A stretch of DNA of 64,000 bases from Psammoneis japonica (GCA_008632985.1 QPGO01000074.1:124001-188000), one strand, 5' to 3'; numbered from the stretch's first letter, positions 21,432 through 64,000 are shown. The notes: generated by a model not told the origin, from the sequence alone. Made by a program: numbers and translations.

Positions 21432-22029
21432 GAAAAGTTGTGGCGAACCAATCCGAGCTCGTACATTATCACTTGAGTGCAAGTGATTACGACCTGCTTC
21501 GCTTCAACACCATGCTCGTGCGTGGTGTGCCGTGCTCATGCTTTACTGTGCAGTACGGCCGGCACCATGCACAGCGCTGCGGGGAAAAGTGAGCCCGCGT
21601 CACCGCTCTTCGCGCAGAAAGAACAACGGTCATGAGCCACACATCACATAAATTTGCGCTTCAGCACCTTGAAAACTTGCTGCATTGTTCCGACAAATTC
21701 CGAGCCACCACCTGTGCTCAGCACCCAATGGAACAACAACACGACAATGGCACAAATTCTGTTTGTTGAATGCAATGGAGGCACTCCAGCGTCGAAATCG
21801 CTTCGCAAGATCATCCCACACATTGTTTGTGACAAAGTTGTGAAGAGACTCAGATGGTGCTGAAGCTCCTCAATTGCGCTCAATGAACGGCATTTGTGCT
21901 GTTGTGGTGGTGTTGTTCGCACGGTGAGTGCAAATGCTCATGTCTGTTTTTTCCATGGGTGACTCACAACTCAGCAAAAACATGGCCAATTTCAGTCGAT
22001 TTCTGCTGCATGCACGCAAAAAACAAGGG

Positions 22030-22166
22030 CATTGAAAGGTGCTCCTTTTTTTAAAAGGTGTTGGATTTTTAAGCCATTTTTAAAAGGTGCTGAAAATTAA
22101 AAAGGTGCCAACTTTTCAGGCTTTTTTTAAGGTGCTGGATTTTTAAAAGTGCCAAGTGTGGCACTG
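22030..22166. repeat. Cluster of AAAGGTG(C/T) motifs, possibly a DNA-transposon subterminal array
   Basis: About six aa(a)ggtgc/aagtgc units separated by T/A runs, ending gtgtggcactg (reverse complement starts CAGTG). Confidence 0.4.
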
Positions 22167-24125
22167 TCTGCACATTGCACCAAGCACAACAACTCGCACA
22201 TCCATGAGACTGCCGTGTCAAAACTTGTGGCACCAGGTGCTTCTGCTTCATTTGCTCTGAGTGAGACAGGCAGACAACAAGGGCGCACATTCAACTGACC
22301 CAGTGCACACACCCAAAACACTGACAAGACAACCCCCTGCTTGCCTGGGGTGGGTGGGTCAGCTGTGGTGATTTTTTTCTCAAAGCTGCTGCAAAACAGG
22401 AGGCCCGCTGAAGACAATTTTCACAAAAGTGCTGCAAATCCACTCATCAGCACCAGCTTTGATTTCCTTTTGTTGAGCATGGGCCATCTTGTTGCTTGCT
22501 GTGTGAAGGCCCCTCCACTGTGGCAGCAGATCCACCACACTTCCCCCCCTCTGCTTGCACCCGGCAATGAGCTGAGGAGAAGGAGAGCACACAGAAAGAG
22601 TTGTTTGAGAAATGAGATGAGCTCTGCCACCAGAGGAGGCAGCTGAATGGGTGTGATCACAGGGGGGCGCCTTTGCTTTGATTGGGCACTTTGCTGAATG
22701 GCTGCTGTGTCTCATTGTTGGCACAAACAAGGAGCTGAGATGAAAACACTCCATGCTTCAATGACTGACAATGTTGCGCTTGTCAATCTTGGGGAGAAGG
22801 ATGTCCACATGCTCTTGGGCTTCATTGGATGATGTTCTTTGTCACACTGGCAGCAACCTCTCTGACCAACTTTTGATGATGGAGCTTGCAGCCCACAAAT
22901 GGTCAGGTTCAGCAGGCAGAGAGTGTGAAATGTTGCACAGTCCATCATCATCAGCAACATGCTCTGTCTTGTGCTTGTTGTTGTTGTGCTTTGTTGCCCA
23001 ACTCTGACAAGCTTGCAAAGTTGAAGATGTGACTTGGCAGAGTTTTCAACCACACTGTGATCCAACAAGTCCTGGCAGGCCAGATTTTTTCCTCTGGATC
23101 TTTGCCATTGTCAAAGCTGGCTTGCTCTTACAGCAACATCAGAAATTCAAGTTCCTTGATCTGCCAGCAATCCATTCCTCACATCCTTGTTCATTCACTC
23201 AGCAAATTGGGCCTTGTTTGTTGTCCCTGCCACAAAGCCACAAGCTGAGCAACGTTGCCTGCTAAAGTGCCAGTCATTTGAGTGCAAAGAGGAGAGGCTT
23301 CTTTTTGTCCAAATGTTCAAGATGAGCTGTTCAAGGACACATTTTGTTTGCAGCCTGTCCAGATGCTCATGTCAAACAAGCTGAGGACAAATCAAGGCAT
23401 GTGGGCCCACTTTTCTCTCAAGCTTTTCGATGGCCACCATCAATGAGGTCATGGAGAAAAAGAATGCCAACAGCACTGTTGGCTTTTTCAGGGAGTTGAG
23501 CACAAGGAAGGTGCTTCTGTTGATGATTTAGAATCAATGAGGATCAATGGTTGTTCTTGGGTGAGGTTGGCCTGTGGTGTTTCACAAGCTGAGCAAGTCC
23601 GCCATCTTCGGGTGCAAAGAAAAGGCTTGGGGAGGTCTGTTTCATGTTTCATGTGGCTTCAAGGAGAGAGACATGTGTTGTTGACTTTCTTGTCAAGAAC
23701 TCCAAGAATCAGTCAGAGGATGCTTCTGATGTGACCCAGTCCCAAGTTTTGTTGCCACACACTTGCTCAACACGGAGCACATTGCCCAGCCACATTGAAG
23801 GTGTTTTGAATCCCCAAATGAAGGTGGCCACCAAATGCAACAAGTGGCACATCTTGTTCTTCACTTCATTCAGTCAATTTTGTTGAGCAAATTTCTGTGT
23901 GAGGCTGTTGTCATCGTGCAATCCATGAAGCAAACTGTGGCATTTTCTCAATGGCTGGTGTGTGTGTTGATGTTTTGCCAGGACACCAGCTTTGCAGAGT
24001 CCTGCAGTGATTTTGCACTGGGCAGCAGAGTGTTTGTGTGATGGAAGAAGATTGGCATGGTGGGGCAAAGCTCAGGATAGATCAAGCACACCTTTTCATT
24101 GACCACTCAGTGGTTGGTGATTGCA

Positions 24126-24163
24126 NNNNNNNNNNNNNNNNNNNNNNNNNNNNNNNNNNNNNN
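24126..24163. other. Assembly gap (N run) followed by a G run
   Basis: 38 N characters. Confidence 0.98.
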
Positions 24164-24460
24164 GGGGGGGGGGGGTGTTCAGGCAGTTGGGCAGTCGGTC
24201 TGCCCAAATTTGAGAGTGTGTCCCTCAGATTTTGGAACAGTGTGTGTTGTTCAGCACAAATGGATCATTTGGATTCAGAGAATTTTGATCATTGAGGACA
24301 TTGGAGGTCATGGGGACATCCTAAAAAAATTGACCAATTCCCTGCAATGGGTGTGTGGAACTGTTTTTCAGAAGAGCTCGAAAGTGCTGTGAAATTGGGA
24401 TTGCTGGCAAGGCTTGTTCAAAAATGCACCAAGCTTTGTGTGGACAGAATTTATCATGAA

Positions 24461-24646
24461 TTGCATGCAAAACAGCCACATTGGAAAAAACATGTCAAAT
24501 GACAAGTGAGCTCATGCGATGCACCATTTTGTTGGTGAATTGGACAAAAAAGAGTGTCCGTGCACCTCACTGCAGCCCCAAAAATGGCACAAGCCATCAA
24601 ACACAACAGTCATCTGCATCACTGGTGTGGTGGCCACGCCACCCTG
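24461..24646 (+). repeat. Dispersed ~185 bp direct repeat, copy 1 (copy 2 at 26364-26550)
   Basis: Shared cores caaaacag, gtgtccgtgcacct, ctgcagccc, aaaatggcac, agccatcaaa, gtcatctgcatca. Confidence 0.85.
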
Positions 24647-25379
24647 AAGCTCCAACAGAGCAGCATTTGATGGCGTGAGAACCTGAATGTCACAAAAACA
24701 TCATTCATGTTCTTTCTGATGATGGTGCATTGAGGCAGATGGTTTTCAATGTGTGGTGATGAGTGACATGAGACATGAACACAGCTGTTGTTCAGGAGCA
24801 AGAAGTGTGACAGCCATTGTGACAACACAATTGCCAGATGAGTTGGGAATTCCATCGAGGTTGTTTGCATTCAGTCATGTCCATCATTTTGTGAAAAGGA
24901 GCCCGCACCAGATTTTTCTGGTGGGTTTTGCACCAGCCTTTCCGTAAATGAGAAGTGGAGTGCAGAGGCTCAAGGATGCAGCGACTGCAAAAAAACAACA
25001 AATTGAGTTGCTTGAAACCACCAAAAGAGCAAGGTGTTGACAATGGATGATGTCTGTTGCATTGCAGACATTGCATGTGTCATTGCCTCAGTGTGCCACA
25101 TGCATTGAAACAAGCATGGTTCAATGCAATCCTGTCACAGGGAGGAGGTGCAAAGTTTCTGGGGTGGAGCTTGCCATGAAAGAAAAGGGCCACAATGGCA
25201 TCTGTGGTCAAAGAGCACATGTGTGTGCAAAGCAGGCAAGGAAAGGTCTGGATTTGCATCTTTGAAGTTGTCAGATGCAGCTTGGCATGGGCAAGAGTGT
25301 GCTGAATGCAGTGAAAGACAATGGAGACTCATTGGCAACATGCTCTGTCACATTTTTGCTTTTCCTTGCCATCAAGCAC

Positions 25380-26360
25380 CTTGCAAAAGCATGTCATTGC
25401 TGGACTTAGATGAAGAAGGAGCAATGTCTGGTTGTCTCACTCCAAAAAACCATGACACAACAATTGAAGCCAAACAGGAGACAAGGCCAACAAAAGACAA
25501 ACTTTGGGCTTTGCTGCAAACTTTTGAGTTGGATGAGAATCACAATGGAAGCTTCTGCCATTTTACAGCAGAGGAGCCATTGATGTGCACGCCATCCAAA
25601 ATGTCAACAAATGTTTCTCACAAAAAGCTTGCCAATTCAATGGATTTTGGTGTTTCTGAGAATGGGTGGGAGAAGGGACACAGGTTTCTTGTGATGCATC
25701 TGGATGAGAAATTCTGCCACTTGATTGGGCCAGAAGCAACAGCAATGTGGGTGCCACATTTCCCAGTGTTTCATGACAAAATGTGCCACTGTCTGAAGAA
25801 GGAGAAAACGCAAATGACACATGGAATGTGGCACAAGGTGTCATGGAACCACCTTTCTTGTGTGCCCAAATGACTGGAGCTTGACATGTGCTTCTTCACA
25901 ACTGATGCCTCTGTCTGCCAATGCTGCTGCCTTGGGTCCAGACCAGTCAGTGATGGGGCACAAAAGCTCTTCATGCATGCAATGCAGCAGTCCATTTGGG
26001 ACAGACATCATCACACACATGCCATTAAGATGCTGTCTCAGTGTGGTCCATGTGGCATGATGTTGGTGACATGTGGTCCCACATCAGCTTGTGAGCAAGA
26101 TCTGACTCTGTGTCAGTGGAGCCAGTGGGACAACTGCATTTGTGATTTGTGTTTGCAGAGACTTGGACGTGTCTTCACATGCTGACTCCACATTCAGTGG
26201 GTGTTGGTTCTGCACAAGAATGTGACATGAACCTCTTCCAGCCTTGGGCTGTGAATTGCTGATTGGATTGGAAAAATGAAAATTGCAACCTCAACAGCAC
26301 CTGTCAATCAATTAAACTCAGATGCACAAGGCCAGAACAGCTGTTCCCGCTGCTGACAAT
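25380..26360 (+). mobile_element. PIF/Harbinger (DDE_Tnp_4-like) transposase pseudogene
   Basis: FFTTDAS...SRP...AQKLF...HTHAIKM...GPCGM...GPTSACEQDL, then ADSTF and EN.NLNSTCQSIK...QLFPLL; contains stops and frameshifts. Confidence 0.65.
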
Positions 26361-26363
26361 GGA

Positions 26364-26550
26364 TTGTGCACAAAACAGTCATGTTGGAAAAAAACATGAC
26401 AAACAACAAGTGGGTTTGTGCAATGCACTGTTTGGGCAACAAATTGGGGAAAAAATTGTGTCCGTGCACCTTGCTGCAGCCCTGAAAATGGCACGAGCCA
26501 TCAAATGCAATGGTCATCTGCATCATCGGTGCAGCGGCCATGCTGCCCTG
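26364..26550 (+). repeat. Dispersed ~185 bp direct repeat, copy 2
   Basis: Aligns to 24461-24646; differences dominated by CA/TG swaps. Confidence 0.85.
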
Positions 26551-28477
26551 CCACTCCAATGCCAGCCCCCACGGCAGGGCCCTTCTTGCACACAGGCAAT
26601 GCAGCATGCAATGGCACACACCCACATCCACAAAGAAAGACAAGTGGTCAATGCTCCCTGGAGGCCTGGTCCAACCTTTTGCTCCTTTGTGACAAATCTG
26701 GCCCTCCAACAAAGACAGGCGGAGCACCCTGCTTCCAGCCCGCATGTGTGGCAGATGGAAAACAGAAGTGCAGAAAAAGAGAAAAGAGGATGAGAGCACC
26801 AATCTTCAGCCAAGTTTGTTTGCAGTTTTCCAGTCACATTGTCAATGTGATGCCCCCAAGCCATCAGCAAATCTGGGGGGGGGGCAGGATGCTGTGAGCT
26901 CTTGTTCTCCAAGCAACCAGCAAAAAAAGTTTCAGACCCCAAAACAACATCATCTCACTTGATGAATTCAATGATGTCACTGGCATTGGGAACCTGCTCA
27001 TCTTTCACAAAATGACCCTCTCTCTCAAGGGCACAGCGCTCCTTTGCAGCCAACCATTGTGCTGAGTTTTTGGTGCTGGCACCAGGCAAAGAATTTGCCA
27101 CCAAGTCATTTGCTTTGAAATGCTGCAAGCTTGTCATCTTTCAAATGGTCCAGGTGCTTTTTCCATTTCTTTCTGTTGAGAGGAAGATTTCAACAAATTT
27201 CTCTTTCCAAGGTGAGGGACTGTGTGTGCCACCTCTTTGTGCATGGCTTTGATGTCTCAGCAGATGACATGGATGGACAGCATGGGCATGGTGGTGAACA
27301 GTGGATGATTCCAACAGATGTGCTTGATGGCAAGTGCACAAATGAGGGCAAGCTTGCATCAAAAATTCTCCAACTTTGCTGCAAACGTTGTGCAGGATTC
27401 TGTGTGATTGCTGAAAGACTGCCAACCAACAATGAAAAATGTCATTCTCTGCAACATGGATTGCAAAATGAGAACAGTGGCCTCACACAGAAATTCACAG
27501 CACAAAAGTTGGCAGAATCATGTCCACACAGTGGGGTGACATGATCAGCACCAGCACAAGACCTGGTTTGGCAAATTGAAGCTTCAGCTGAGTTGACACC
27601 ATGGCTGTGTGCACAATGGTGAAAGCATGGTGACAGCTTGGCTTCGACCATGAGCACAGCTGCACACATTGTTGAAGAGTGGGGTTCCTTTTCCACAAAT
27701 CTGGCTGAAGCAATGAATGCCAGTTTGTTCCATGACCAATGGCGTGCAGTTGCTGCCCTCTCAAAGGTGTTTCCCAGGGTGTGCTGGACAATGCGTGTGA
27801 ACAACAGCACACTTTTTTGCTGTTGAAAAATCTCAATGCTGAGAAAGCTTGTCAACGTTGGCTTTTGTCAGTTGCTGGACAACACCCCCAGTTGAAGTGG
27901 CGGACGAGAGCCTTTTTTCTTTTGAGACATGTTCTCAGCAGCTGCAAAAGCTTTGGACAAGCTCAAGAGCAAAGAAAAGTCCTGAAACACTGGGCTCCTC
28001 CTGAGCAATTTGTGTGGTGTGCAAATCTGCATGAGTTGTTGGAAACCCTGGCCCAAACAAAACACACATGATGCAATCAAAGTTGATGGACAAATGCACC
28101 AAAAAAAGGGAGGGGGGGGGGGGGAGAATTGCCCAAAGCAACAGCCTTTTTTCCTCTTGAGAAAGCAGCCAATTTTCAAAGACAAGCGTGCTCAATGTTC
28201 GCTCACACTCCAGTCTGTCTCACACGCATTTTGCTGTGCCTTGTTCAGCTCATCACACAGACCAAGCTTTCCATCAACACTGCATTGTTTGCACAGGCTC
28301 TTGTTGTTTGTGCAGTCTCGCTCAGATTTATTTGTGCGTTGACCTTTGGGCCTGTGCTGCGAACGCAGAGTGAGGTCGACGGAGGCACCTCCATCTGGAA
28401 GCAGACATACAGTACAGGTGGACAGGATAAGGCGCAGGTGCACGCACTCGTGGTGTCGGGCGGTGGGGGGTTGGGGC

Positions 28478-33770: not shown

Positions 33771-34099
33771 GTGTCACTCAGTGAGTGATCATGTGGCCAA
33801 AATTCGAAAAACAGCTGTAGGGTCGCCGGAACATCATCTGTCGACGAGGAGTCGTCGTCCTCCTCCTTTCCCTGCCGCGGCCATTCTTCAGAGCACATTT
33901 GAAACATTCTTCAACCCATGTTTTACCGTTAGCTTGCCTTCTGAAATCTATCTCTGGGACATCATCCGACGGGTGATCTTGTGTCCCAGTGCCATTGCGG
34001 GATGTTCAGGAGATGGAGTCGAGTTGATCAGCGGAGATTGGGGGGCTCAGTTTTCAGTTTGCGCCAGCGAGGCATTGGCTTGAAATGCAGCTGGCGAAG

Positions 34100-35550
34100 G
34101 ATCGAAGCGGGAGGGTTGCAATGGGGGGGGCAGAAGAAAAGGGAGGGCCTGGTGTGGTGATGCGAGGTGGACCATTCAGTCAAAGTTGGTCAAGTTGATG
34201 GTTTTGAAGAAGTGGGCGTGACCAGGACATGGTGGGTGTGCTGGGACACGGTTTTGAGTGGAAATGTTTCTCAAAAAAGTTGGTGAGTGGGGAAGGGGGC
34301 ACAGGGTCCAGATGGGGTGGAAGAGCTGTTTTGCAGTGATGGAAAACTTGATGGAAGCACAGTGATTGTCTGGAGGTGGCCCAGGTGCACAGAGACTGGG
34401 CACAGAGAGCAGGAAGTGAGAAAGAGGATTGCCAGAAGATGTGGTGAGACCACGGGGGCAGAGCTGCAGAAGGAGCAGGCAAGTTGGTGAGCAACAAGGA
34501 GGGGGGCATGGCACCAGCCATGGTGGAGCAACAGCCAGTGCCGCTGGCTGCTGATGCAGGCACATGACAGAAGAGCAAGGTGCAGGGTGGCAAGGGTTGG
34601 GAGCGGGCAGCGAGGTGTCAGAACAAAAAGGCACCCCAGCATTGTTGAGTGTTTTGTTGGAAGGGAGAGGACCATGAGGTGTGACGGGAGCAGGGCCGTC
34701 AGGATGAAAGTTGCAAAACAAATGTTGGAGACTGGCTCATGCATGACAGTGGAGATGACACATGTGTGGAATGGGGAGCTCTTGGTTTGAGCATTTCAGA
34801 GTTGGCAGGATGATGAGAGGCTGCCCAGGTCATTGGTTTGTGGAGAGTTGCAGCTTTTTTTGTGGCTGGAAGGTTTGTGCAGAGAGGCAACACTGTCAAT
34901 GGCTGGCCAAAGAAACAGTGACTTGTGGTGATTTGGGGGATGAGGCCAGGTTGTCATTTGAATTTGGGAGAGACAGTGCTTGTTGCAGGGTGCTGGTGCT
35001 GACTGCGGGGCAAGTCTCAAGTCTGGGGGAGGAGAGAGCAGGAGCCAGATTTGGCGGTCGAGGTGGCGGTCTTGTCATGGCTGAGATGAACACCATGTTG
35101 GGGTCCAACAGTTGGGAGGTGTTTGAGGAACCATGGCAGTTCTGTGTGAGGGAGCCACACACCAGCATTGTCCATCAAACAGGCAGCAGTCGTGAGGTTG
35201 GTTGGAAGGGGAGGTGCTCACAGATGAAAGCTCGGAGTTTGGTTGTTTGAGAACAATGCTGAGGATGAGAGCAGCAAAGTGTGAGGTGAGAGGACAGCCT
35301 TGGCAAAAGTCTTCTGGCTGGAGGAAGGATTTCCAGGTGCCAGTGGGGTCACAACGCCAGCACATGTTGGGTGCACGGCAGAGGACGAGGTTAAAAATGG
35401 GTGTGAGTGAGATGACGGAACTGCTGGGTGAGGAGTGAGGATTCGGGGTCGGCAGGTGTCTCTGCAGCATTCATTGAAAAAGTTGTCCTGAGAGGAAAGC
35501 ATGAGAGGGCACAGTGCATTAACGTTGAAATAGAGGAGTTGTTCGACATT
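34100..35550 (-). mobile_element. Non-LTR (LINE-type) retrotransposon reverse-transcriptase remnant, hypermutated
   Basis: FFNECCR (D..NAFN-like), FLQPEDFCQGCPLTSHFAALIL (G..QGCPLS motif), degenerate YMDD region, G..L..DKT; TA/CG depleted. Confidence 0.7.
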
Positions 35551-49500: not shown

Positions 49501-49644
49501 GGGGGGTTAATTTTTACACGTGGCATCATGGAGCTGGGACGGAAAGCTGCAACCCGAAACGAAAAACACCAAACACCAAACACCAAACGGCATAAAGTCA
49601 AAAGTGTTTTGAGATCAGACTAGCAATAGAGATAATCATTCAGG

Positions 49645-51444: not shown

Positions 51445-52085
51445 GATAATGATTCCTTCTCTTATTCCTTGTCGACGCGAAATTTGTGTGCAAATTGTCG
51501 ACGCATCTTATGGTCTGATCCCGTTTCTTTGCCCGTGATGTCGACAACGAAAAAGTGATTGCATCTTTTCCGGCGTTGCCAACTCGTCGCCTCGTTCCAA
51601 AACAGATGGCAGAGGGCAAATTACAGTACAATGTTTGACTGTAAACGACCACCTTTCTTTTTGCTGGGCTTCCTCTTCCCTGCTGGCGGTGTTGTTCCCT
51701 CATTGCTTCGCTGGCGGGAATGCGTGCTTGTTCTTCCCGCCACCACGACTAAACCACGACCACAATGACCGCCAAAAACCGCGCAAAAAATCCTCGCGCG
51801 ATTATTGTATTTTTTGAGGCTCAATGGAAAATGCTGGGGCCCTAGTTTTCCCCTTCGTAACCTACGTAGTAGATATGGTCGTCTAATTCATTTTGTGATC
51901 CATGTTCTTCCGCTCGAACTCGAGGTCTTTCCCAAAGACGGTTGGCTGCAACTGCGACAAGAGATCCATGCCAGTGACATTCACACCGACGAAGTGGCTG
52001 GGATTTGGAGACAGGAGTGCCTCCACCGCGGGAAAGTCAGACATCTGGACGAGTGAGCTCTCAGGGAGGACATCAGAGGCAAGGA

Positions 52086-53965
52086 TCAGGCATTGTCATT
52101 ACGCAACTTCTCCACAACATAACCAGCACCGTCGTCACACATTGTGACCACAAATCCAGCAACAGGCCTCTTGTCTGCTCCGTCCTCCATTGTGCGACGT
52201 GTTTGAACATGTCCTGACAAATGCTCGTGAGATTTTGTGATAAAAGCAGGTGTTGGAGTATTCTGAACTTGTTTCAGTTCCAGTGTGACTACACAAGTCG
52301 CCGAACTGAATGTGACATCTGTCCGTTTTCCAGTCAGCGGCAAAATGTCCTCTTGAGTCGTCTGCACACTGCCTTTTAGAATGTCATGGGCCTCGTTGAT
52401 GACGTGCGACTGGAACTGAAGCTCCAAGATGTGATTGTCCTTGTCTGAGGAAGCCCAAGACATCAAACTTGCCATGTTGTTTTTCGAAATGGAAGTCACA
52501 AAGTCCACCAAAATCTCTTCACCTTTGTCGCAGAGATCTTCAGTGGTTGTGAGCGAAGTCAATGTTTCGAGGGATGCTCGCAGCGTTCTCAGCAGTGGTT
52601 CAAGGAGGTTTTCACGGTAGAAATCTGAGGTGATGGCGAATGTTGGATTGGTTTTCGATCCCGTTGATGACACCACTCCGAGGTGGACAAAAGCGTCAAG
52701 CAGTCACCGATGTCGATGTCTTCCCGCAATGGATGCTCCAAACTGAGTCCTTCGTTGAGCTTGTAGCCTTTCACTTCACGCCTTTCAGCCAGCTCATTTA
52801 CCACGCACCGAAGGTTCCAAGCATTTTCAAGGACGTTGAACATGGAAGACGGGATTGGTTCCCGGCATGAGCTTCCTGGCAAGGCGCCATCATGCAAGAA
52901 GCTGGCCCGAGAAGAAGGACTCCTGAGCAACTTGTTCATCAACGAATTGACCAAGCCTGTGTGATGGAGGGAGCTCCCCCCGAGAAAACGAAGGTTGTTG
53001 AAATGGCATTTGATCTTTTGGGAGGCAAGCTCAAGCTCCCCTTCTTTGAAGGGTGCATGCTCGTGGATCTCATCAAGCACACCACGAACATCAGCGTCAG
53101 TTGATCCAACAGCATCTGCCATGTCTTCCTCAAACGCAAGCGAGGCAACCGTAAGACCACTCATCTCTTTTGTGCCAATTGGAGTGATCCCCGTTGGCAA
53201 TGTTTTCACGTGGTCCAACTGCTCCAGGGCAACCTTGACAGCCCTGAAAAAAGAAAAGTGCGATCCGAACAGCACTGTGATGTTTGCGTTGACCTCCTTG
53301 TAGAGGTTGCGGCCATGCTCAGGAATTAGTCGCAGCAGGCCTTCCCGGATGGGTTGGTCGCATTCGTCAATGAGAATCAGCAATCGCCCTTGCAAAGAAT
53401 GCACAGCTGCACTCAGATTGCCAACCACCGTGCCAATTTGTTGATCGGCGATTTTGACGCCCACAGAAAACCTCTCGCAGGTTTGCTCCAGTTGCGGGTT
53501 TTGCGTCAACACGTAAATGACTCGGTGTTTGACAGCACTTGCAGTTGCCTTGTTGATGCTTTTGCAGACATCTTCCCATGTGCTCCTCTCACCATCTTCA
53601 ATTTGAGCGGAAGCGACGCCAAAGTCTAAGCGCAGGACAAACCAATTGTTCCCATCACCCTCGGACGGCGAATGACGCAGATCGCTGTCAATGTTGGAGC
53701 TTCTGTTCACCGAGAACAATTCGTCCGCAAGGGAGAAAAGCGTTGTTTTACCCAGTTGCATCGGGCGAGTGAACACTGCGGCATTGTCGTCGTGGTTGAA
53801 CATTTTCTCCAGAAACATGCTGTTGTCGCGGTGGCCACGGTCTTGACGATAGATTGCCGAAGCACCGTTCTGGTGTCGGCCAGGGAATCCAAAACTGGCT
53901 TTCATCCTTTTCGCTGATTCTTCATCTCCTGCATGAGATTCTTTGCTTTCACTTGAAGCGCTCAT
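52086..53965 (-). pseudogene. AAA-ATPase-like + PD-(D/E)XK nuclease gene, TpA-hypermutated, frameshift near 52680
   Basis: VFTRPMQLGKTT (Walker A), LILIDECDQP (IDEYD read as IDECD), FFRAVK, TGITP, KRTDVTF...TLELKQ. Confidence 0.8.
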
Positions 53966-54623
53966 GGCATCCTCATGCTTGGCTCTTTTGACGACTGGTT
54001 CTTCTTCATTGCAATGGGGGGTTGTGAGAGGCTCTCTGATCTCTGACCCCCACGTCTTGGCAAAGTGCGTTGAGCTTCAATGTTAACATCCACATGGATG
54101 TGCACATTTCCACAAGCAAAAATCCTTGTTCCATGCAGCTCCCCCAACAAATCTCTGACCACCAACATCCGAGGGCATGGCAGAGCACTTTTTGGAAGAT
54201 TGCGCACACATCACGAAAACAACATGCATTTTCATGACGACTCGACCATGATGATTGCCGGCCGCAGCGCGGCCATGGTGCCATCTGTCCGTCTGTCTGT
54301 CTGCATGCGAACTCAAGAACCGAACATTCTTCAATGTCCCGTTGAGTGTCTCAATGACTTGTTGCTCCTTGAAGCAAACTTCTGTGCCACACTTACGTCA
54401 GCAGCTGCAAGATTCGGGAGATTCGAATGACCGGGATTGTTGACACCTCTCGAAGAAATTCTGTGACAGAAACCCAAACACTGTGGCTGCAGTCAATCGC
54501 AGCTTTTCCCATGATTTTTAGAAAGCATTCGTGGACAACTTATCAAGACCGTTCACTGTGATCACACTGTGTCTTGTTCTCTCTTTCTCCTTTCTTCATT
54601 GTGCATTCTTCACCTTAAACGCA

Positions 54624-55547
54624 ATGTCGCATTTGGTGAGAGCTTCACTGAGAGCACCGTGTTTTGTGTGCAAACCAACCTTCAAACACGGAGATTTGGA
54701 CAAAGTGAAACTCGTGCAGAACTGCGACGATGGTGCCAAGAAACTGAAAATGTGTCCTCAATTCACTGGCAAGCACGGCATCGAGTGCTCACTCTACACT
54801 GCAGAGCGTTTTGAGAACTGTGCCGAGCATTTAGATTGTGATGAAGGACCTGAAAAATTCACCCATTTTGAAGAAGTGTCAGAAGACAACGCTCAAGATG
54901 TGTGGAGCAATTTGGTTTCAGGTGTCGCGGAAGCAGATCGGACCATGGCCAGGTTTGACACAGAAATCGCACGCTTTCATCAGCGACACTGTGATCATCA
55001 AGCGCGTGGTGCGATGTTTGAATTTTTGAAAAATTCTTCCAAACCTTTTGGTGATTCTCCTCGCGAGCATGCTGGCAGGATGATTCAAATGTCGCGTTGC
55101 GCCAACAAGCTGCCTGGAACTGAACCTTTGCTCAATGAGCAGCAAACCAAGAACATTGCATTCACGGGCATGCCGATGACATGGAAGCAGAATTGTGTGC
55201 GCACTGGAAAGGATGTCAGCACTGATTCTTTGGAAGATGTCATTCAACACATGTCCAATGAGAAAGGATTTGCTGATCAGAAAGGTGCTGCCAAGCCTGG
55301 CAATGATTCCAAGAAGCGCAAGGCTGGAGATGCGGAGTCTGCCGGGAACAGGAAGAAGTTTGGCCCCGACTCTCATTGTCGGTTGCACAAGGATTCTGCA
55401 GCACCTCATCTGTGGCAAAATTGCAGGGAGAATCCCAAGAGCCTGAACTGCAATCCAAATCCTCATTTTCAGAGAGGTGGCCGAGGTTCGCCAAGTGCAG
55501 GCCAAGATGCAGGCCGTGGACGAGGTCGAAACCCATGTTCAGGCTGA
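54624..55547 (+). pseudogene. gag of gypsy element A
   Basis: KPFGDSPREH...MP.TWKQ, zinc-knuckle-like CRLH......HLWQNC, GRG-rich tail. Confidence 0.7.
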
Positions 55548-58500
55548 GGAAATTATGGAGGCCGATTTTATGGTCCTCAGAACGCCAGCTGTGCTGGACG
55601 TGGACGTGGCGATGGCGGACACACTCCCAATGACAGTTTTGGACGTGGTCAAGGCGGACATGGCCGTGGTTGCAACCAAAACAGCATGGGCCGAGGATGC
55701 GGTCCACAGAATTTGCCTCAAAATTTTCACGCGAATCAAAATCAGGTGCAGAGTGGTTCAGGAGAACCAAATGCTCATCCAGCTCAACGAGCTCCTCCGA
55801 CTGATGCTCAGTCACAAGAATGGGGTGCAGATGTGCGCCATTTCGACATGGCAGGCTGTGGTCCGCCAGGAGGTCCTGACGAGACGTCAGGAGGAACGGA
55901 TGTCGGATGAGGTCCACATCCAAGAGGACCTGGATTATGATCCAGTTTGGAGTGCTGCTCCAGTCTTGGCGTCAGCTTTGAAGTTGACAACACCATTGCC
56001 ATTGACACAAATGCACCAATTGAGCACGAAATCTTTGTGTGACACATGTTTGTCACATGGAATCGACAGCGCGAAAAATCAAGAAGAGCCGATGGGGTTG
56101 CTTTGTGCTGGTGTGCCGGCACCCAAAACAAAAAACATGAATTCTAACATGGCACCTGCATCAGTGCTTGCATGCAAACAAATGAACGGAGCTCACTCTT
56201 CTCGTTCATTGAGAGTGTCATTTGATTCAGGCAGCATGACTGCTCTCATTCACGAGCGATGTTTGGCGCGTGGAGCTGCTCCAAGTCCACTCAAGAAAAC
56301 AGCAGCATGTGGTGCAGCTGCAGGACCAATGAAGAGCAGCAGAACAGTTGGTTTGGAGACAACAATGCTGCCTGAATTTGACAGATCATGGAGCATTGAT
56401 TTCCAAAAAGCTCTGATGTTTCAAACACCGTGTTGTTGCGACGTGATTCTTGGATCGGATTTTTTGGCCAAGGCTGGAATTGATGTAAATTTCTCATCAA
56501 GGACAGTCAAGTGGTTGGACAAGTCCATGCCTGTGAAAGAACTTGCCTTTTGGGACAATGCAGAGAACACTCATTTTGCTCTTGCAGGTCCAGAAGTCGA
56601 AGAAGAAATCGACGCAGTCGAGTTCCATGCATTCGCCATGCAAATTCTGGACGCCAAGTGTGAGTCAGCATCTCTGGAAGAAGCAGCTAAGAGGCAAACA
56701 CATGTGTCAAGAGAGCAACAACCGGAGTCGCAACAAGTGCCAGCCAAGTTCCCCAAAGTGTTCGACGGAAAATTGGGTCGACACCCACACAAATTGGTTC
56801 ATTTGGAAATCGACCCTAGCGCGATTCCGGTTCATGCTCGACCGCACTCAGTTCCAAAGGTTCATGAGGAGGTTTTCAAGAAAGAGCTTCAGCATTTGGT
56901 TCAGATGGAAGTGCTGAGACCATGTGGTCCCACCCATTGGGCATCTCCTTCATTTGTTGTTCCTAAAAAGGATCAACGAGTGCGGTGGGCATCCGATTTT
57001 TGCACGCTCAACAAAGCGTTGAAGAGGTTGATCTGTCCTTCACCAAGAATGCAAGACATTGTCAAGAAGAGAAAAGGGTGCAAGTGCTTCACCAAGTTGG
57101 ATCTGTTCATGTTCCATTGTGCTTTTGAGCTGGATGAAGAATCCAAGGAACCATGTGCCCTTGTCACTCCTTGCAGCAAGTTTCAACATTGTCGGCTCGC
57201 GATGGGTTTGAAACCAGCGGCAGATGTTGCTCAAGCAGTTGTTGAAGAAGTGATGAATGAGCTTGATGCAGATTGTTTTGTTGATGATGTTGGTCTCTTC
57301 TCAATGGTTTGGTCTGAGCATTTGGCAGCATTGAGTGCCGCATTGCAACATTTGGAACAAAACGGTTTGAAAGTGAACCCGCTCAAGTGCGAGTGGGCCG
57401 TTCAAGAAACTGATTTTTTGGGACATTGGATGGCTCCAGAAGACGAGCAGCTCGAGGAAAATTTGGGCCCGGAATTGAACACTCCATTCTGCACCATTCA
57501 AGATCAAGAATTGGTGGATTGCTTCTTGAATTGTCCGAGTCTGGAAGAAATGCAACACCCCTTGAATTGTCCTGACACACAAAGGTTTCAGTTTGAAGAT
57601 TGTGAGCTGAATCAAGAGCGGCAGAGGAACCCGCTTCGATTTCCGACTCGATGCGTCGGTGGAGTTCCATTGATTTGTTGGAGGCCTGAAATCAATGCTC
57701 AAGAAAATGACTGGAAAATTGCTTCACCAACTGCTTTGTTGGCGCCTGTGGTCAGGTGGCATCATCAAGTTTTAGGGCATTGTGGCATGCAAAAGCTCTG
57801 TTGCACGATTCATGCGCATTGCTGTCATCCGTTGTTGCGCCGATTGGTCGAAAATTGTCATTGCGACATGTGCCAAAGGAACAAACTTTGGGGAGTTGGA
57901 TGTGGTCACTTGCCACCAAGAGAAGCTCCTTTAGTTCCGTGGGATGAAGTGGCCGTTGATTTAATTGGTCCTTGGAAAGTGCAAGTGCAAGAACAGGAAG
58001 TCGAATTTAACGCATTGACGGCAATTGACGCTGTTTCTAACCTTGTGGAATTGGCTCACATTGACAACAAGACTTCAGATCATGTGCAGATGAAGTTTGC
58101 CAATTGTTGGTTGGCAAGATGTCCGAAACCAAACCGCTGCATTCATGACAAGGGCGGCGAATTTGTTGGTGAGCCATTTCAGATTCTGTTGGCGAGGGCT
58201 GGAATCAAAGACGTGGAAACCACCACTGGAAATCCTCAAGCCAACGCCACTTGCGAAAGAATGCATCAAACAGCTGGCAACATCATTCAAACCACAGTCA
58301 GGGGACATCCCCCTTGCAATGTGACAGAGGCTCAACACATCGTTGACAACGCATTGGCCACAACCATGCACGGTTTACGGTGTGCCACCTCAAGAGTTTT
58401 GGGAATTTCGCCAGGAGCTCTCATTTGCCAGAGAGACATGTTCCTTGATTCACCTCTCATTGCAGATTCAACTGCCGTTCGGAATCGTTGGCAAGTGTTG

Positions 58501-58803
58501 ATTGATGACAACTTGCATCGGCAAAATCTCAAAAGACGCTTTTTCGACTGTCGTGTCGGGCAACAAATTTTGGTCAAAACAGACGATCCCACCAAATTGG
58601 AAGAAAGATCTTTTGGTCCCTTTCCTGTCACACAGGTTCATGCAAATGGAAGCGTCACCATGCAAAGAGCACCTCATGCATTTGAAAGAATCAACATTCA
58701 GCGCATTTTGCCGCATCGACTTCAGCATGATCAAATGGATTGCGATTCAACGCATTCGCATGAATTGCGGAAGGGAAGAGTGAAGCAAACTTCTGCATCA
58801 TAA
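55477..58803 (+). pseudogene. pol of gypsy element A (protease, RT, integrase; RNase H deleted), open but saturated with missense changes
   Basis: FDSGS, DVILGSDFL, WASPSFVVPKKD, FTKLD, RLAMG, CFVDD, VNPLKCEW, VDLIGPW, HDKGGEF, NPQANATCERMHQ, GPFPV. Confidence 0.92.
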
Positions 58804-59016
58804 TTGCATCAGCAGCTGCAAGATTCGGGAGATTCGAATGACCGGGATTGTTGACACCTCGAAGAAATTCTGCGACAGAAACCCAAACACTGTGGCTGCA
58901 GTCAATCGCAGCTTTTCCCATGATTTTTAGAAAGCATTCGTGGACAACTTGTCAAGACCGTTCACTCCCATGAGAACGTTCTGGTTTCTATGAAGAATTC
59001 TTGTTGTGTGTCTTGA

Positions 59017-59514
59017 CCCTTCAACCACCAGGGGAGCAAATCTCCACGGGTGGAGATTTGCTCTGCTTGAGGATGTGTGACGTCTCATGCACTTTTACAA
59101 TGACATGATGAACACAGCAGAAAAATGTCATGTCCTGTGCAATCTGCATGTGGTGTGCCACGTGCATTTGCTTGTTGGGAGCAAATCTCCACCGGCGGAG
59201 ATTTGCTCCCAGGGTGTGGTGTTGTTGCTCCATTTGTGACAGTGATTCATGAAAACCTCAATTGCTGAAGGTTGAGATTTGGTTCCTCTCCATTCACAGA
59301 TGGAGCTTGCAAAAAACCCGGCGTTGAAAGGCGACATTGAACTTTCTCAACCACAAAAAGGGCGCCTCCAGATTTTCGGCGAGCGTGCGTTCCAGAACAA
59401 AATCGCATGAACAAAATGTTGTGCACATCTGAAATTGCTTCATTTGCCACATTTGTGACACAAGCGAGCAAATCTCCACCCGCGGAGATTTGCTCAAGTC
59501 CAGTGGTTGAAGGG
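59017..59514. mobile_element. piggyBac-like MITE in the 5' LTR of element B; TSDs read TTGA and TCAA (ancestral TTAA)
   Basis: TIR CCCTTCAACCAC / GTGGTTGAAGGG; the empty site in the sister LTR is TTAA (62146-62149); three internal gagcaaatctcc-ggagatttgctc hairpins. Confidence 0.88.
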
Positions 59515-60536
59515 TCAATTGCGAGACTTCCAGCACATGTTGTGCGTGTGTCCTGCGAGGACCCTTGACAAGAGCCTTGAGAAGTGGTTCTAAAGCTCTC
59601 CTTTAATCAGGCTCACAACTCATCTGTGAGCCCAATTTGCTGCAAGCACATCTTGTCCATCAATCTGTCAACTGTCACTTGATGCCACACTCGGCACAGC
59701 AAATTTGCTCCCCGTTTCTGAACACCCCATCCTTTGCTTCCACGAAGCCTCCAACATCTGCAGCAAGTTCTGCGAATTGTCCTGACCAGCCATGTCAGCC
59801 AAAAGCTGTCCTTTCCGTCTTGTTTGCTCTGAACGAACAAATGAAAAATGTCGCAAAGATCGTTTTGTGTCACTCCAGTCACCTCTCGATCCCAAAAACC
59901 CTGGTGGTCTCAAGTCTGCCATGGAATTGCGTGTGTCAGACAGTGAAGACCCTGAAGACACTCTCGCTTTCTTCAAGCGATTTGAAGAGATTTTTGTCAT
60001 CCTCAACATTGCAGAAGGAGCTCAACGTTTCCGTCTGATCAACCACCTGTTGGCTGGCCAACCATTGAATGACTGGACTGCTGTTGTCAAAGAGCATGAA
60101 GAACGCGATCAAGACACTTTCCTCGCAGCACGCGAAGAATGTCTCCTGACTGAGATGACCCGCAACATTGCGGTGGACACCAAAGATTGGCTGCAGTCCC
60201 TCAGGAAACCACGCAATGATGCCGCACAGTCATTTCTCCACTGCGTCCATCAGATCAATGATCTCATTCCATTCATGCCACTGCCTGCAGATGAAGAAGA
60301 TGCACAGCCCATTCCCAAGTTCGCAGAAGTGGAGTTGACTGCTGTCATCCGAAAAGCATGTCCCAAATCCTGGAAAAATTCTCAAGTCAAAGCAAACTTG
60401 CGCGGACTCAATCTCAGCAATCAAGTTCAACACTGCGAGGGTCTGCGCAACATTGAGAATTCAGATTCATCCTCACTGCCTCATCAAAACTGCAATGCAA
60501 CCGCACAGCAATCCAAAACAGAGTCAAGCAGCAAGG

Positions 60537-60932
60537 GACGCGTTCCAGACGTAGGTGGGAATCCGTGTGACATTGGGCCCGTAGACTTCTACGTGCGAGC
60601 TCCGTAGTAAAATTATACGGTAATTATAATGTCAATGATCGCCAACAGAAAATGAGGCAATTTTGCGAACGCACAAACTCGCACATGATTGAAGTACATC
60701 ATTTTTTACTTAGCCAGTTACATTCTTCAGACATTGAAGAATGTAACTGGCGCATATTTGTTTCTATAAATTTGTTATATAAAACGTCTGGGGCTTCGCA
60801 AAACAGCGAGTCTGGACAATTTTTTTTAAATATCACACGTAGAAATCTACGTACGAAACATACGACGGATGATAAAAATTATTGTTGTCACACGTCAGCA
60901 CTACGAGCTCCCACCTAGGGCTGGAACGCGTC
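60537..60932. mobile_element. Unmutated MITE with 24-bp TIRs and 4-bp TSD AAGG, inserted in gag of element B
   Basis: gacgcgttccagacgtaggtggga versus inverted gacgcgttccagccctaggtggga; aagg at 60533-60536 and 60933-60936; removal rejoins ORFs 59792 and 60882 (SSK-DQQAL). Confidence 0.9.
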
Positions 60933-62321
60933 AAGGATCAGCAAGCCTTGCAACAAAAATCCAACAACTCCAGCTCGAGTTCCCAAACAAACAACACATG
61001 TCCAATCCATGGAACAGTCCATCCAAATGGACAAGAGTGCAATGTTGTTCACCGTGAGCGAGAAATCTGCCAACAGCGACATCAACAAAGGCTTCGACAT
61101 GTCCAACTCTCAGAAAACACCAGCTCAGACAACCAAACTCAGAGCCAGTCGCAACAGCAGCCAACTTGTTGCTGCAATCTGTGCAGCAGAAGCAACCAAC
61201 AAAGAAACAATGAAAACAACGCGATGGAAGATCCTTCCAGCACCTGCAATGATCCCCCAGACGATCTTGGAAGCGCGCCATCTGAAACCATCAATGAAAT
61301 CTGTGATCTTCATGATGAAATCAATGAGATTGAAAGTCAGAACACTCAAGAATCTCAACAAAATGTCAGCGCAGATGTGCAAGTGCAACTCACCTCATCC
61401 TCCACCTCTCACACAGAGCAGGCACTCAGTCTCCTCGACTCTGGAGCCAACAACAACTGCGCCAAGCACGAAGCCCTTGAAAAAATCTCCCATCAAATCA
61501 AACCAATTTCTGCACCGGTGCAAAGCCGCTACAAATCAGTTCAAGTTCAGAACAAGGCAGCACCCAACATTGCATTGCCTGAATTTTCTCAATCGAAGAC
61601 TGCTGCCATCGAAGCGCACGTCAAAGATGGTGCAATCGGTCGTCATGCCATTGTTGTCGGTCGCCGAACGCACAAACAACTCAGCATTGTTCTGGATTTC
61701 ACGACTGCCACAATGACCTGTGGCAACGTCACCATCCCCATGAAAACAGAAAACAAGACTCAACATGCCACCTGTGAAGACTGGCATCATGTCAATCGAA
61801 AATGTCAAAACGCCCCACTTCAAGTCACCTCCACAAGTTGGCTCAAGCCTGAACTCCTCTCCACCAATCACTCGAAGTCCAAACTTAACTCTGCCAATGG
61901 CACAGTCACCATCCAGAGCTCTCCCAATGTCACTGAACGAATCAACATCCATCGTCTTCACCCTGTCTTCTAGACTGTTCAGTTGGGGAAGCGAGTGCCG
62001 TGGTGCCATCTGTCTGTCTGTCTGTCTGTCTGTCTGCATGCGAACTCAAGAACCGAACATTCTTCAATGTCCCGCCAAGTGTCTCAACAACTTGTCACTC
62101 CTGTGAGAACGTTCTGGTTTCTATGAAGAACTCTTGTTGTGTGTCTTAATTGCGAGACTTCCAGCACATGTTACACGTGTGTCCTGCAAGGACCCTTGAC
62201 GAGAGCCTTGAGAAGTGGCTCCAAAGCTCTCCTTTGCATCTGTGAACCCAACTTGCTTCAAGCATGTCTCATCTGTCAACATGTCAACTGTGTTTCACTT
62301 GGTGCCACATTTGGCAATGAT

Positions 62322-64000
62322 GCCTCGGGGTTCTTCCCCATCACCTTCCCAGGACACCGGCCCCACTGGCGCCATTGACAACAACACTGACACAACAGGT
62401 GATGTCATCACTCTGGTTTTCGTGGGCGCGACACATTCAGAACAAGACACTGCAAACTGACACTGTCATCTCCATGCTCCACTGCCTCCCAACAGATGCT
62501 GTCAAGAACTCCAGTGCCGCACCTGCGCTTCGGGCCCCTGGCATGCCCAACACTGTTGCTCCTGCCCTTGCTGTCACAGGTGCTGTTGACACTGTTGTTG
62601 TCTTTTGCCAATGACGTCGCACCGTCATTTTGGAGAAGCCATCAAAAAAGCACACTGCCCAGACTTGTCGAATGAGCATTTAGATTTGGCATGCAACAAG
62701 CTTTGCGATTTGTTTCTGGAGGTGCTGGGTGCCATTGATGTGGGAGTGAAAAGGTCAAAGAAGGTGTTGATCACATCCATGAGGACAACACGGGTTTGTC
62801 TCGCTGTGTGGCTTGTTCAAATCCCCACTGGAATGAAGTGGATGCCACTGGAGAAAAGCCCAGCCTTGACAACAGGTTTGAAGTTGCCAGCTCCATTTGT
62901 GGGGAAGAGTTTCTCTCCATTCTGGTCAACATTGTTGAGAGCAACATCCCTGCCCGCTCCCCAGTGCAAAAGACATTGTTGACGCACAGCAAAGTTGATG
63001 CATCATGGGAGGTGATTTGCTTTGAGAGTGGCAGCTTGTGCCTTGGTGAAACCACCTTTGCTGCAACCTGGAAAAGGAACACAGCATTGATCCGCTCATC
63101 AAGTTTGTTCTCTGCATGGATGCAGCTGGCATGTGGCATGTTCAGGCTGTCACTGTGGAAGGAAGAGGGATGTGTTTTCAACCCAGGTGGGTCACTCGGG
63201 GACAATGCACGAGGTTTTCTATGCATTTCTACATGACATGCACTTTTTGCACCACAATCGTGTGCAATTTTCGAGCTCCCACATGACGCTGTCTTTTTTT
63301 CATGCCTCATCCACAAATCGCGCACACCAAAAATGGCACCATGCCACTGCCACGAACTTGACCATCCTCACACCATCGTCCGCAATGACAAAGAAGGCAA
63401 GAATGCCAAAAGAGGTCAACAAGACTGAGATCAATGCGATGATGTGGTTGAAGTTTTGATTTTTGCCATTTGCCATGTCTTGTGGATGGCCTTTTTCCTC
63501 GTGACATTTTTTGTGCCAATTTTTCTTGTCCTCAGATTGTGATGTGGCATTCTTTGACATGCAAGGCTCTGTTGACTTGATGCTTCACACACGCAACAAT
63601 GCATGTCTTTATGATGTGTCTGTTTGATTTTTGTGATGCATTGAGTGCACTTTAAGTTGGCATGGACGACGCTTTTGGGTCGCGCACAAATGTCAAACAT
63701 TGGCGCTGACAAAAGAATGACTCTGCATTCAGTTTTGAGGGTGCACGGCAATGAAGAAGCCACTGGACGAGTCTGACAGGTGCAACATTGTAAAGCAGAA
63801 CAAAAAAAAGTGACACCCATGTGTTGCACCCATTTTGCTTTGTTCCAAGGTAGAGCCAGTCAACTGCATGTGGAAATGCTGTCTGCACTTCATTGTCACC
63901 ACTGCCTCTGCTCATCAAATGACTTGATCACTCTGCATTCATCAAACTTTGTTGCTGACATTTCAGTGCTGGCATGCAACTGACTCAAGACTCCCACACA
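62322..64000. other. TpA/CpG-depleted decayed sequence, unidentified, continues past the window end
   Basis: Near-absence of TA, TG/CA excess, overlapping Cys/His-rich ORFs. Confidence 0.65.

Follow-up and report, generated by a model that had tools for sequence, protein, structure and literature searches.

A TpA-depletion footprint in a diatom nuclear genome and its probable origin in guided DNA-level conversion of TA to TG and CA

To our knowledge, repeat-induced point mutation (RIP), which is confined to fungi, was long the only known case in which a cell deliberately mutates the DNA of its parasites in place. Hypermutation of TpA to TpG or CpA has since been described in mutation-accumulation lines of the chlorarachniophyte Bigelowiella natans (Mettrop et al., bioRxiv 10.64898/2026.01.13.699255). 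According to that preprint, mutation in two integrated viral regions runs ~1,000 times faster than in the remaining genome; A>G or T>C made up 210 of 211 and 20 of 20 of the new mutations there, all of them on TpA; and reverse transcriptase and DDE domains are over-represented in 324 TpA-poor coding sequences. Hypermutation occurred in some lines only, and the authors suggest an ADAT2-like deaminase. Here we analyse a stretch of 64,000 nucleotides from the diatom Psammoneis japonica (GCA_008632985.1, QPGO01000074.1:124001-188000; hereafter the window), in which five blocks have lost nearly all of their TA dinucleotides and are enriched in TG and CA. We consider it probable that the blocks consist of dead mobile elements and pseudogenes on which, after they had settled in the genome, a guided DNA-level process acted that turns TA into TG or CA, most likely by adenine deamination.

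The diatom case is a second instance of a kind described once in another branch of the SAR clade (stramenopiles, alveolates and Rhizaria), with a much deeper footprint. As far as the preprint can be compared, TpA is changed in both organisms to TpG or CpA on both strands, with almost nothing else, leaving clusters that are poor in TpA and rich in CpA and TpG. Mobile or foreign DNA is hit in both, and the action appears episodic (confined to some lines there; sparing a young element inside a mutated block here). The two cases differ in lineage, Rhizaria there and a stramenopile diatom here, and in kind of evidence: a rate was measured in B. natans, where depletion of the viral regions is only mild (rho 0.45), whereas a footprint is what we see here, with an observed/expected TA ratio of 0.05 over 38 % of 64 kb. 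They also differ in target, which is integrated viral DNA there, and long terminal repeat (LTR) retrotransposons, short non-autonomous elements and host-type pseudogenes here. Concurrent CpG decay and a preference for T-A-pyrimidine are readable in the diatom. With TA at 0.05 and TG and CA at 1.7, the blocks lie far beyond the cut-off of rho_TpA <= 0.43 given for clusters in B. natans. The main text of the preprint does not contain the words diatom, stramenopile, CpG, flanking or trinucleotide. The author of a preliminary description of the window knew of no account of such a system in this group of organisms; a lack of any precedent no longer holds in general, and perhaps still holds within diatoms, for which a literature search that did not cover subscription journals returned no paper on TpA depletion or on A:T>G:C hypermutation of transposons.

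TA loss, its products and its sequence context

Observed/expected ratios of TA, CG, TG and CA were counted in sliding windows of 1 kb, and the five blocks (24,436 bp in sum; cores in Table 1) were set against a background of 36,466 bp clear of them. TA ratios per kilobase were 0.00-0.14 in the blocks versus 0.30-0.99 outside, and those of TG and CA were 1.3-2.3 versus ~1.1. Overall, the blocks contain 82 TA (observed/expected 0.05), 616 CG (0.43), 2,606 TG (1.68) and 2,555 CA (1.71); the background contains 1,407 TA (0.57), with CG at 1.01 and TG and CA at 1.14 each. The Poisson probability of finding no more than 82 TA where 943 are expected is 5e-289. The longest runs free of TA measure 2,016 bp (26313-28329) and 1,443 bp (33949-35392), followed by 985, 948 and 919 bp. 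Five sharply bounded blocks, poor in TA and rich in TG and CA, had been noted in the preliminary description, and the recomputed cores fall within ~100 bp of its limits.

That account was correct in the loss of TA and overlooked a concurrent loss of CG, which is depleted in every block (0.16-0.69) and supplies about half of the excess of TG and CA. Relative to background expectation, TA in the blocks is down by 861 and CG by 821, TG is up by 891 and CA by 796, so that a loss of 1,682 is matched by a gain of 1,687. Loss of CG with a matching gain of TG and CA is the pattern of decay at CpG that is presumably methylated, and it explains only half of what is seen. Such decay cannot remove TA, and the loss of TA is the more complete of the two; in block 5 (segment 5a), TA retention is ~0.1 and CG retention ~0.7, which places the TA process several-fold ahead of methyl-CpG decay there. 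Because the two processes shift base composition in opposite directions, the G+C content of the blocks (0.46-0.54) has stayed similar to that of the background.

The affected motif is TA and not WA (W = A or T), since AA, TT and AT show no depletion against background expectation. AA was observed 2,102 times where 1,951 were expected, and AG gained 161 where TG gained 891, which disfavours the error-prone synthesis of polymerase-eta type at WA that had been named as a candidate in the preliminary description. GC-biased gene conversion was considered and rejected, TA alone being affected and AT, AA and TT not. The TAs that survive are chiefly TTAA, TTAG and TTAC. RTAY words (R = A or G, Y = C or T: ATAT, GTAC, ATAC/GTAT) are reduced to 1 where ~294 are expected, while TTAA and TTAG are retained at 35-41 % when the host background is taken as a proxy for ancestral composition and at 15-17 % when 78 related gypsy loci serve as a second proxy. 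Splitting each lost word between its two possible products gives inferred A>G rates that depend mainly on the 3' base, at 2.1-2.8 for C or T, 1.0-1.15 for G and 0.6-0.8 for A, with agreement between the two proxies; this matrix is rough, as it depends on proxies for the ancestor, on CpG decay with the same products and on fast sites that are saturated. The base 5' of T had a weak effect only.

Reads bear out the bases themselves. A public DNA run (X1) contains 78 % of the sampled words of 50001-60000, with a word depth of ~60-65 over unique genes. Contigs assembled from its exact 31-letter words at a depth of ~60 reproduce 49521-54320 with 8 differences: one of 2,911 bp (depth 64.7) covers 49521-52431 with 3 differences, and one of 1,915 bp (depth 59.8) lies within block 5 and spans 52407-54320, departing from the window by 5 differences and 1 gap. 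Exact-word contigs at this depth imply accurate reads, and a long-read miscall, the concern raised in the preliminary description, is therefore very unlikely. At one and the same site, TG may stand in one copy and CA or TA in another. A second run (X2) is filed as 'DNA?' but contains contigs that are spliced (joint 49749>49850, GT..AG) and behaves like a transcriptome of the same sample; its contigs give no cover over 53.2-62.2 kb, which we do not take as a sign of silencing.

Direction of change and action in place

The direction of change can be read from proteins. Block 5 contains a Ty3/gypsy retrotransposon whose pol frame (P0121) is open but dead. It has one tyrosine in 1,118 residues (0.1 %), with Cys at 4.4 % and His at 4.2 %, whereas all 120 full-length homologues have 2.8-4.9 % Tyr and ~2 % Cys. 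At 369 columns with at least 70 % agreement among 60 homologues, the frame is identical to the consensus residue in 289. None of the 14 conserved tyrosines is kept: 8 have become Cys (TGY), 5 His (CAY) and 1 Phe. Other conserved residues are largely retained (Trp 10/10, Gln 9/9, Asp 24/25, Lys 16/17), and the loss of Tyr relative to all of them has a Fisher P of 2e-10. The reverse-transcriptase active-site motif reads Cys-Phe-Val-Asp-Asp. Further changes at conserved columns are Ile>Met (ATG) at four, Val>Ala (GCA) at three, Leu>Ser (TCA) and Leu>Pro (CCA) at two each, and Ile>Thr (ACA); A>G also appears after T across codon junctions (t|GTT, t|GTC, t|GCA, t|GCC, t|GTG). By codon, 31 of the 80 changes are of the TA type, and Arg>His/Gln/Cys/Trp at 7 columns is of the CpG type. 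Selection or codon adaptation is rejected as a cause, because the losses include conserved and catalytic tyrosines and extend to T|A codon junctions.

An AAA-ATPase-like pseudogene at the left end of block 5, matched in two frames by tblastn with P0362, P0363 and P0366, shows the same bias, with 2 of 8 conserved tyrosines kept, 4 changed to His and 2 to Cys. Both products of a TpA transition were thus found at conserved Tyr codons, TGY or CAY accounting for 13 of 14 in the gypsy frame and 6 of 8 in the AAA-like gene. The substitutions expected in the preliminary description (Tyr>Cys/His, Leu>Ser/Pro, Ile>Met and Val>Ala) are all present in the gypsy protein, and those of Tyr recur in the AAA-like one.

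The gypsy family was not poor in TA at the outset, since all 78 related loci from metagenomes have TA ratios of 0.47-1.08; none is TA-poor, in a scan that favours the best-preserved relatives and so has little bearing on how rare the process is. A gypsy fragment of JGI source, P0253 (584 amino acids, 50 % identity with the query), contains 0.34 % Tyr and elevated Cys and His, and from its composition the same process may have acted in another family or organism. Relative to its homologues, P0121 has a clean in-frame loss of ~235 amino acids at 57438/57439, comprising the reverse-transcriptase connection and RNase H, which was seen both by tblastn and by alignment. The element is hence a non-autonomous deletion derivative, yet it has LTRs and a target duplication. 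As its RNase H region and active-site Tyr are missing, we infer that it must have been moved by the proteins of other copies.

LTR pairs indicate that the process acts on integrated DNA. The two LTRs of one element are identical at insertion, and four alignments of LTR pairs in block 5 (511 columns) contain 42 substituted positions. These comprise 9 double mismatches of TG against CA (18 positions), 5 of TA against TG or CA, 6 of CG against TG or CA, 9 other transitions and 4 transversions; differences between the LTR copies of the older gypsy element in the block are rich in the double mismatches. A TG/CA double mismatch is the outcome of separate conversions, in two copies, of one ancestral TA or CG, and we estimate that most derive from TA, given that ~90 % of TA and 30-50 % of CG have been converted.

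Both strands are affected alike (2,606 TG versus 2,555 CA over the blocks). In all six block segments, neighbouring TG and CA labels are independent of one another when compared with shuffled labels (z -2.0 to +0.8), and a test for strand runs, as processive single-strand events would leave them, was negative. This argues for many low-yield rounds acting site by site, rather than for a few processive events. The Tyr changes, the parity of TG and CA and the LTR pairs together support the proposal of the preliminary description that A:T is converted to G:C at TpA on both strands. A local exception to the symmetry is seen at 60933-61833, where CA/TG counts in three successive 300-bp windows are 47/17, 38/20 and 40/23, with a G+C skew of -0.18 and an A+T skew of +0.20.

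Content of the blocks and choice of targets

Table 1. Features of the window, with summed word depth in X1 (a rough guide to repetitiveness) and TA observed/expected where given
Feature	Position	Strand	Summed word depth	TA observed/expected	Details
TA-depleted block 1	3892..5524	.		0.01	1 TA in 1,633 bp; CG 0.22, TG 1.82, CA 1.91; thinner shoulder to ~5840
TA-depleted block 2	13420..16604	.		0.04	9 TA in 3,185 bp; CG 0.42
TA-depleted block 3, most decayed	21650..28328	.		0.04	17 TA in 6,641 bp; CG 0.16
TA-depleted block 4	33950..35391	.			0 TA in 1,442 bp; CG 0.31; TG 170 vs CA 124
Repeated stretch	46.0-49.6 kb		966-5,820	0.79	
TA-depleted block 5, core	52101..64000				
AAA-ATPase-like pseudogene (PF09820, rare family)	52095..53977	-		0.14	Pfam E 6.8e-9; one frameshift near 52700; CG 0.80
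AAA-like stretch	52.6-53.8 kb		~65	0.11	
Younger Ty3/gypsy LTR retrotransposon	54370..58966	+		0.07	LTRs 54370-54557 and 58781-58966, 94 % identical; target duplication CTCCT / CTCCC; 22 TA in 4,597 bp; CG 0.69
Gypsy pol frame P0121	55447..58803	+			RVT_1 E 9e-15; 1,118 aa; open but dead
Hairpin-rich insert in older LTR	59015..59516	.		0.03	inverted repeats 59026-59063, 59179-59216, 59466-59495; 1 TA in 502 bp
Older gypsy, internal remnant split by miniature element	59697..62016	+			TA 0 in 840 bp and 3 in 1,084 bp
Miniature inverted-repeat transposable element (MITE), unmutated	60537..60932	.	90,515	0.91	396 bp; 24-nt terminal inverted repeats 92 % complementary
Older gypsy 3' LTR	62017..62316	+			partner split into 54284-54369, 58962-59014, 59517-59696; identities 91 %, 94 %, 78 %
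MYG1-type exonuclease gene, partial copy (pseudogene)	62621..63233	+		0.07	Pfam MYG1_exonuc E 2.5e-11 on 62739-63233
Flanking unique genes			~65	ordinary	

Besides two gypsy elements, block 5 contains two pseudogenes and short elements that are non-autonomous, and the genes that flank it are normal (Table 1). The younger gypsy was inserted into an LTR of the older, and at 62017-62147 a copy of the target site is found without interruption. In what is left of the older element, gypsy pol is matched weakly by tblastn at 60167-60460, 61431-61745 and 61893-61967. A (TCTG)n microsatellite opens both copies of its LTR (54272-54303 and 61997-62036). The two depleted stretches that come from genes of cellular type are the AAA-like pseudogene, whose C-terminal end coincides with the left border of the block, and a fragment of a MYG1-type exonuclease gene. 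A paralogue of the latter is present in an X2 contig (record 13) and, at depth 59.5, in a DNA contig (record 8). At 62657, 62693 and 62705, which are 3 of the 5 differences listed, the window reads TG and the paralogue TA.

Copy number does not appear to predict which stretches are depleted, although the comparison is suggestive and not proof. The gypsy elements, LTRs and hairpin insert have summed word depths of ~290-3,100. The AAA-like stretch at 52.6-53.8 kb is depleted at the depth of a unique gene, whereas the MITE and the stretch at 46.0-49.6 kb, with far higher depths, are spared (Table 1). The repeat-targeting proposed in the preliminary description is accordingly not upheld. Length alone is not the criterion either, since the hairpin insert is as short as the MITE and is depleted. 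The spared stretch at 46.0-49.6 kb is represented by 11-25 differing contigs and by spliced X2 contigs, with introns at 47226-47324 and 47654-47743; 46001-49600 has no Pfam match and is normal in TA and CG. This is either a family of expressed genes present in multiple copies or an active element out of reach of the TA process.

The MITE lies intact inside block 5. It retains 31 TA and 26 CG (CG observed/expected 1.53), while its flanks are free of TA for 948 and 614 bp, and its outermost TAs stand 15-16 bp inside its ends, so that the borders are sharp to within ~15 bp. Other contigs skip it exactly (60531>60932 and 60534>60937), marking empty sites in other copies. It probably belongs to a young and very abundant family of non-autonomous DNA transposons; scans of the window with Rfam and for tRNAs gave 0 matches, so that no tRNA origin of the MITE can be recognised. 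Because so young an element is untouched inside a block, the simplest reading is that the process is episodic or no longer running, and that the MITE arrived afterwards.

Transposons have been described as major targets of CG methylation in diatoms (PMC9998398), and the co-located CpG decay would fit methylated chromatin. All four listed differences between the window and the X1 contig over the largely unique and TA-poor 52407-54320 are CpG transitions (53063, 53365, 54054, 54266), which suggests that methyl-CpG mutation continues there as polymorphism.

In and beside the blocks, 209 stop-free open reading frames (ORFs) of at least 52 amino acids (126 of at least 80 and 83 of 52-79) were scanned against Pfam. 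The sole transposon domain was the gypsy RVT_1 of block 5, so that, of the transposon classes named in the preliminary description, gypsy is confirmed, and for copia, LINE (long interspersed nuclear element), Harbinger and piggyBac no domain was found among these frames. DNA of this kind lacks TAA and TAG stops and Tyr codons; it yields long false ORFs and is missed by domain-based transposon annotation. Four of the five blocks had no Pfam match. Searches by tblastn with five gypsy and three AAA-like proteins gave matches in block 5 and none in blocks 1-4. The shoulder of block 2, from ~12865 (12865-13419), has a TA ratio of 0.12; the left edge of block 3 lies 150 bp from the ORF of an ABC transporter, and the block contains an assembly gap of 38 N at 24126-24163; block 4 sits between ORFs without assigned function and an acyl-CoA synthetase gene.

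Neighbouring genes had been called normal in the preliminary description, and those for the ABC transporter, acyl-CoA synthetase, aldo-keto reductase, KIN17 and others are indeed of ordinary composition. The genes between the blocks are nearly free of introns and also encode an FG-GAP protein, a sulfotransferase, a RING protein and others. The acyl-CoA synthetase is nearest to diatom proteins, as befits a diatom host, with Seminavis robusta at 60 %, followed by Cyclotella, Nitzschia and Cylindrotheca, and its top match is 73 %. Tandem direct repeats of ~80 bp (~80 % identical) lie in DNA of normal composition beside the FG-GAP gene at 44038-44360.

Competing explanations and wider meaning

On the reading that we favour, the blocks would be dead mobile elements and pseudogenes of the diatom nuclear genome, altered where they now lie. 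Over many rounds the A:T pair of TpA would be changed to G:C, on either strand with equal chance, giving TG or CA, while ordinary decay of methylated CpG in the same DNA would feed the same two products. A silenced or foreign state is more likely than repetition itself to be the guiding mark. The chemistry, as far as it can be inferred, would be enzymatic deamination of adenine in DNA to hypoxanthine, which is read as G at replication, and the likely agent would be a nucleic-acid deaminase of the nucleus, TadA/ADAT2-like or other, with a preference for 5'-T-A-pyrimidine. TadA and ADAT2-ADAT3 likewise turn A into hypoxanthine that is read as G. Transfer RNA adenosine deaminases act on A34, always after U33, and bacterial TadA reads U-A-C, in keeping with the T-A-pyrimidine preference found here. 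DNA-editing relatives of these enzymes are the laboratory adenine base editors and, as cited by Mettrop et al., BjADAT2 and TbADAT2. Action on chromosomal double-stranded DNA in a diatom, and guidance to mobile elements, are hypothetical extensions of these activities.

Several observations weigh against this interpretation. Pfam scans of 14 + 126 + 47 + 83 ORFs of the window found no deaminase domain or other candidate enzyme, as the preliminary description had said of the window. TA is its own reverse complement, and A>G on one strand is indistinguishable from T>C on the other. The context matrix depends on proxies for the ancestor and is confounded by CpG decay and by saturation. Summed word depth gives neither the copy number nor that at the time of mutation, which makes the case against triggering by repeats suggestive only. 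A contig ~85 % alike overlaps 52085-52431, which gives the AAA-like gene a paralogue, at least in part. Blocks 1-4, with no credible Pfam match in stop-free ORFs of at least 52 amino acids, are not identifiable as transposons. The history is also not purely one of mutation in place: at 56568-9 the window has CA and all five other contigs have TG, a mutated state common to other copies, from which it follows that copies already mutated kept multiplying, and part of the depletion of the younger gypsy may predate its insertion. As to the breadth of the phenomenon, P0253 is the only one among 240 database homologues that is similarly poor in Tyr. Finally, X1, a run of unrecorded read technology, was drawn from the sample that is also the likely source of the assembly, and hence is not fully independent.

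A process with the logic of RIP, in which duplicates are recognised by homology and both copies mutated, the misfit with copy number being a matter of history, strikes us as unlikely. Most of the identifiable depleted DNA is repeated (the two gypsy elements, their LTRs and the hairpin insert), the depleted MYG1 fragment is a duplicate of a host gene, and the partial paralogue of the AAA-like gene points the same way. As in RIP, dense transitions in place have ruined mobile elements, with sharp borders and a shift in dinucleotides, and duplicated host fragments can be caught. RIP itself changes C to T, mostly CpA to TpA, and thereby creates TA and raises A+T, whereas here TA is destroyed and G+C is unchanged; the statement of the preliminary description that neither fungal RIP nor decay of 5-methylcytosine explains the loss of TA is therefore sound. 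RIP is also triggered by duplication and hits both copies. Here the MITE and the repeat at 46-49.6 kb are untouched, DNA of unique depth is depleted, and TA is retained at the three listed sites in the other copy of MYG1. Fungal RIP in the strict sense was rejected on these grounds, TA being removed and outcome being uncoupled from depth, insofar as copy number can be gauged, roughly, from depth. The targets given in the preprint for B. natans are integrated viral genomes and not repeats.

Thymine chemistry in place of adenine deamination is decidedly unlikely. Under this alternative the T of TpA would be modified, for instance by JBP/TET-type hydroxylation or as another adduct, and would miscode as C, with the same targeting. 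All of our sequence results fit R-T-A read as T>C equally well as T-A-Y read as A>G, and JBP/TET-type modification of thymine occurs in several protist lineages. We know of no thymine modification, however, that gives efficient and near-complete T>C. Adenine deamination gives A>G directly, and it is favoured, without proof, by the authors of the B. natans preprint.

The pattern might instead be a passive by-product of heterochromatin, made without a dedicated enzyme by poor repair or by polymerase eta, which favours A>G at WA; we find this highly unlikely. CpG decay in the blocks does suggest methylated, silent chromatin, and CG methylation of transposons is reported for diatoms. Against it stand the undepleted AA and the small gain of AG, a removal of 95 % of TA that stops ~15 bp from the ends of a MITE left intact in the same neighbourhood, and the excess of TA loss over CG loss in block 5a.

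Editing before integration, by an ADAR-like enzyme on retroelement RNA or by editing of cDNA, with the products fixed by reverse transcription, deserves very little credence. ADARs prefer U 5' of the edited A, according to the B. natans preprint, and the state at 56568-9 indicates that mutated templates were propagated. Yet LTR pairs differ mainly by changes of TA and CG type, including the nine double mismatches; the AAA-like pseudogene, the MYG1 fragment and the hairpin insert, none of them retroelements, are depleted too; and the products are unclustered and on both strands, with 8 Cys versus 5 His on the coding strand of the gypsy frame. In animals, hypermutation by APOBEC and ADAR likewise disables mobile elements and is fossilised in the genome. 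It acts there on cDNA or RNA before integration, is biased by strand and clustered, and in the case of APOBEC consists of G>A/C>T, whereas the changes described here came after insertion, on both strands and unclustered. Pre-integration editing of either kind was rejected because the LTRs differ, strand runs are absent and DNA other than retroelements is depleted.

An artefact of sequencing or assembly, for instance through a long-read basecaller that misreads modified bases, can be dismissed almost entirely: whatever the provenance of X1 leaves to be desired, its contigs reproduce the sequence, copies differ site by site among TG, CA and TA, the changes follow coding logic in two proteins, and an unmutated MITE lies inside.

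The footprint in P. japonica is saturated and takes up more than a third of a gene-rich window of 64 kb, and the process now spans two branches of SAR. To what is described from B. natans it adds an anatomy: a flanking-base preference, coupling to CpG decay, apparent independence of copy number, borders at element ends and a host-gene fragment that was caught up in the process. The search for the enzyme becomes comparative, directed at deaminases or base modifiers that are common to lineages with the footprint and missing in diatoms without it. The question also moves to a group with working genetics, knock-outs by CRISPR having been reported for a model diatom (PMC9998398).

More tentatively, diatoms and chlorarachniophytes may share a guided defence by adenine editing, in which a TadA/ADAT-like deaminase that prefers T-A-pyrimidine is directed by a silencing signal, such as a small RNA or a chromatin mark, and not by repetition; we regard this as a possibility, and not as the likeliest outcome. 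An enzyme that makes A>G on chromosomal DNA at a short motif would be of interest to the base-editing field. If the shared defence is real, it would be a natural programmable A-to-G base editor working on chromosomal DNA, either ancient in the SAR clade or evolved repeatedly, and its action would erase every Tyr codon and most TA-containing signals of the DNA at which it is aimed.

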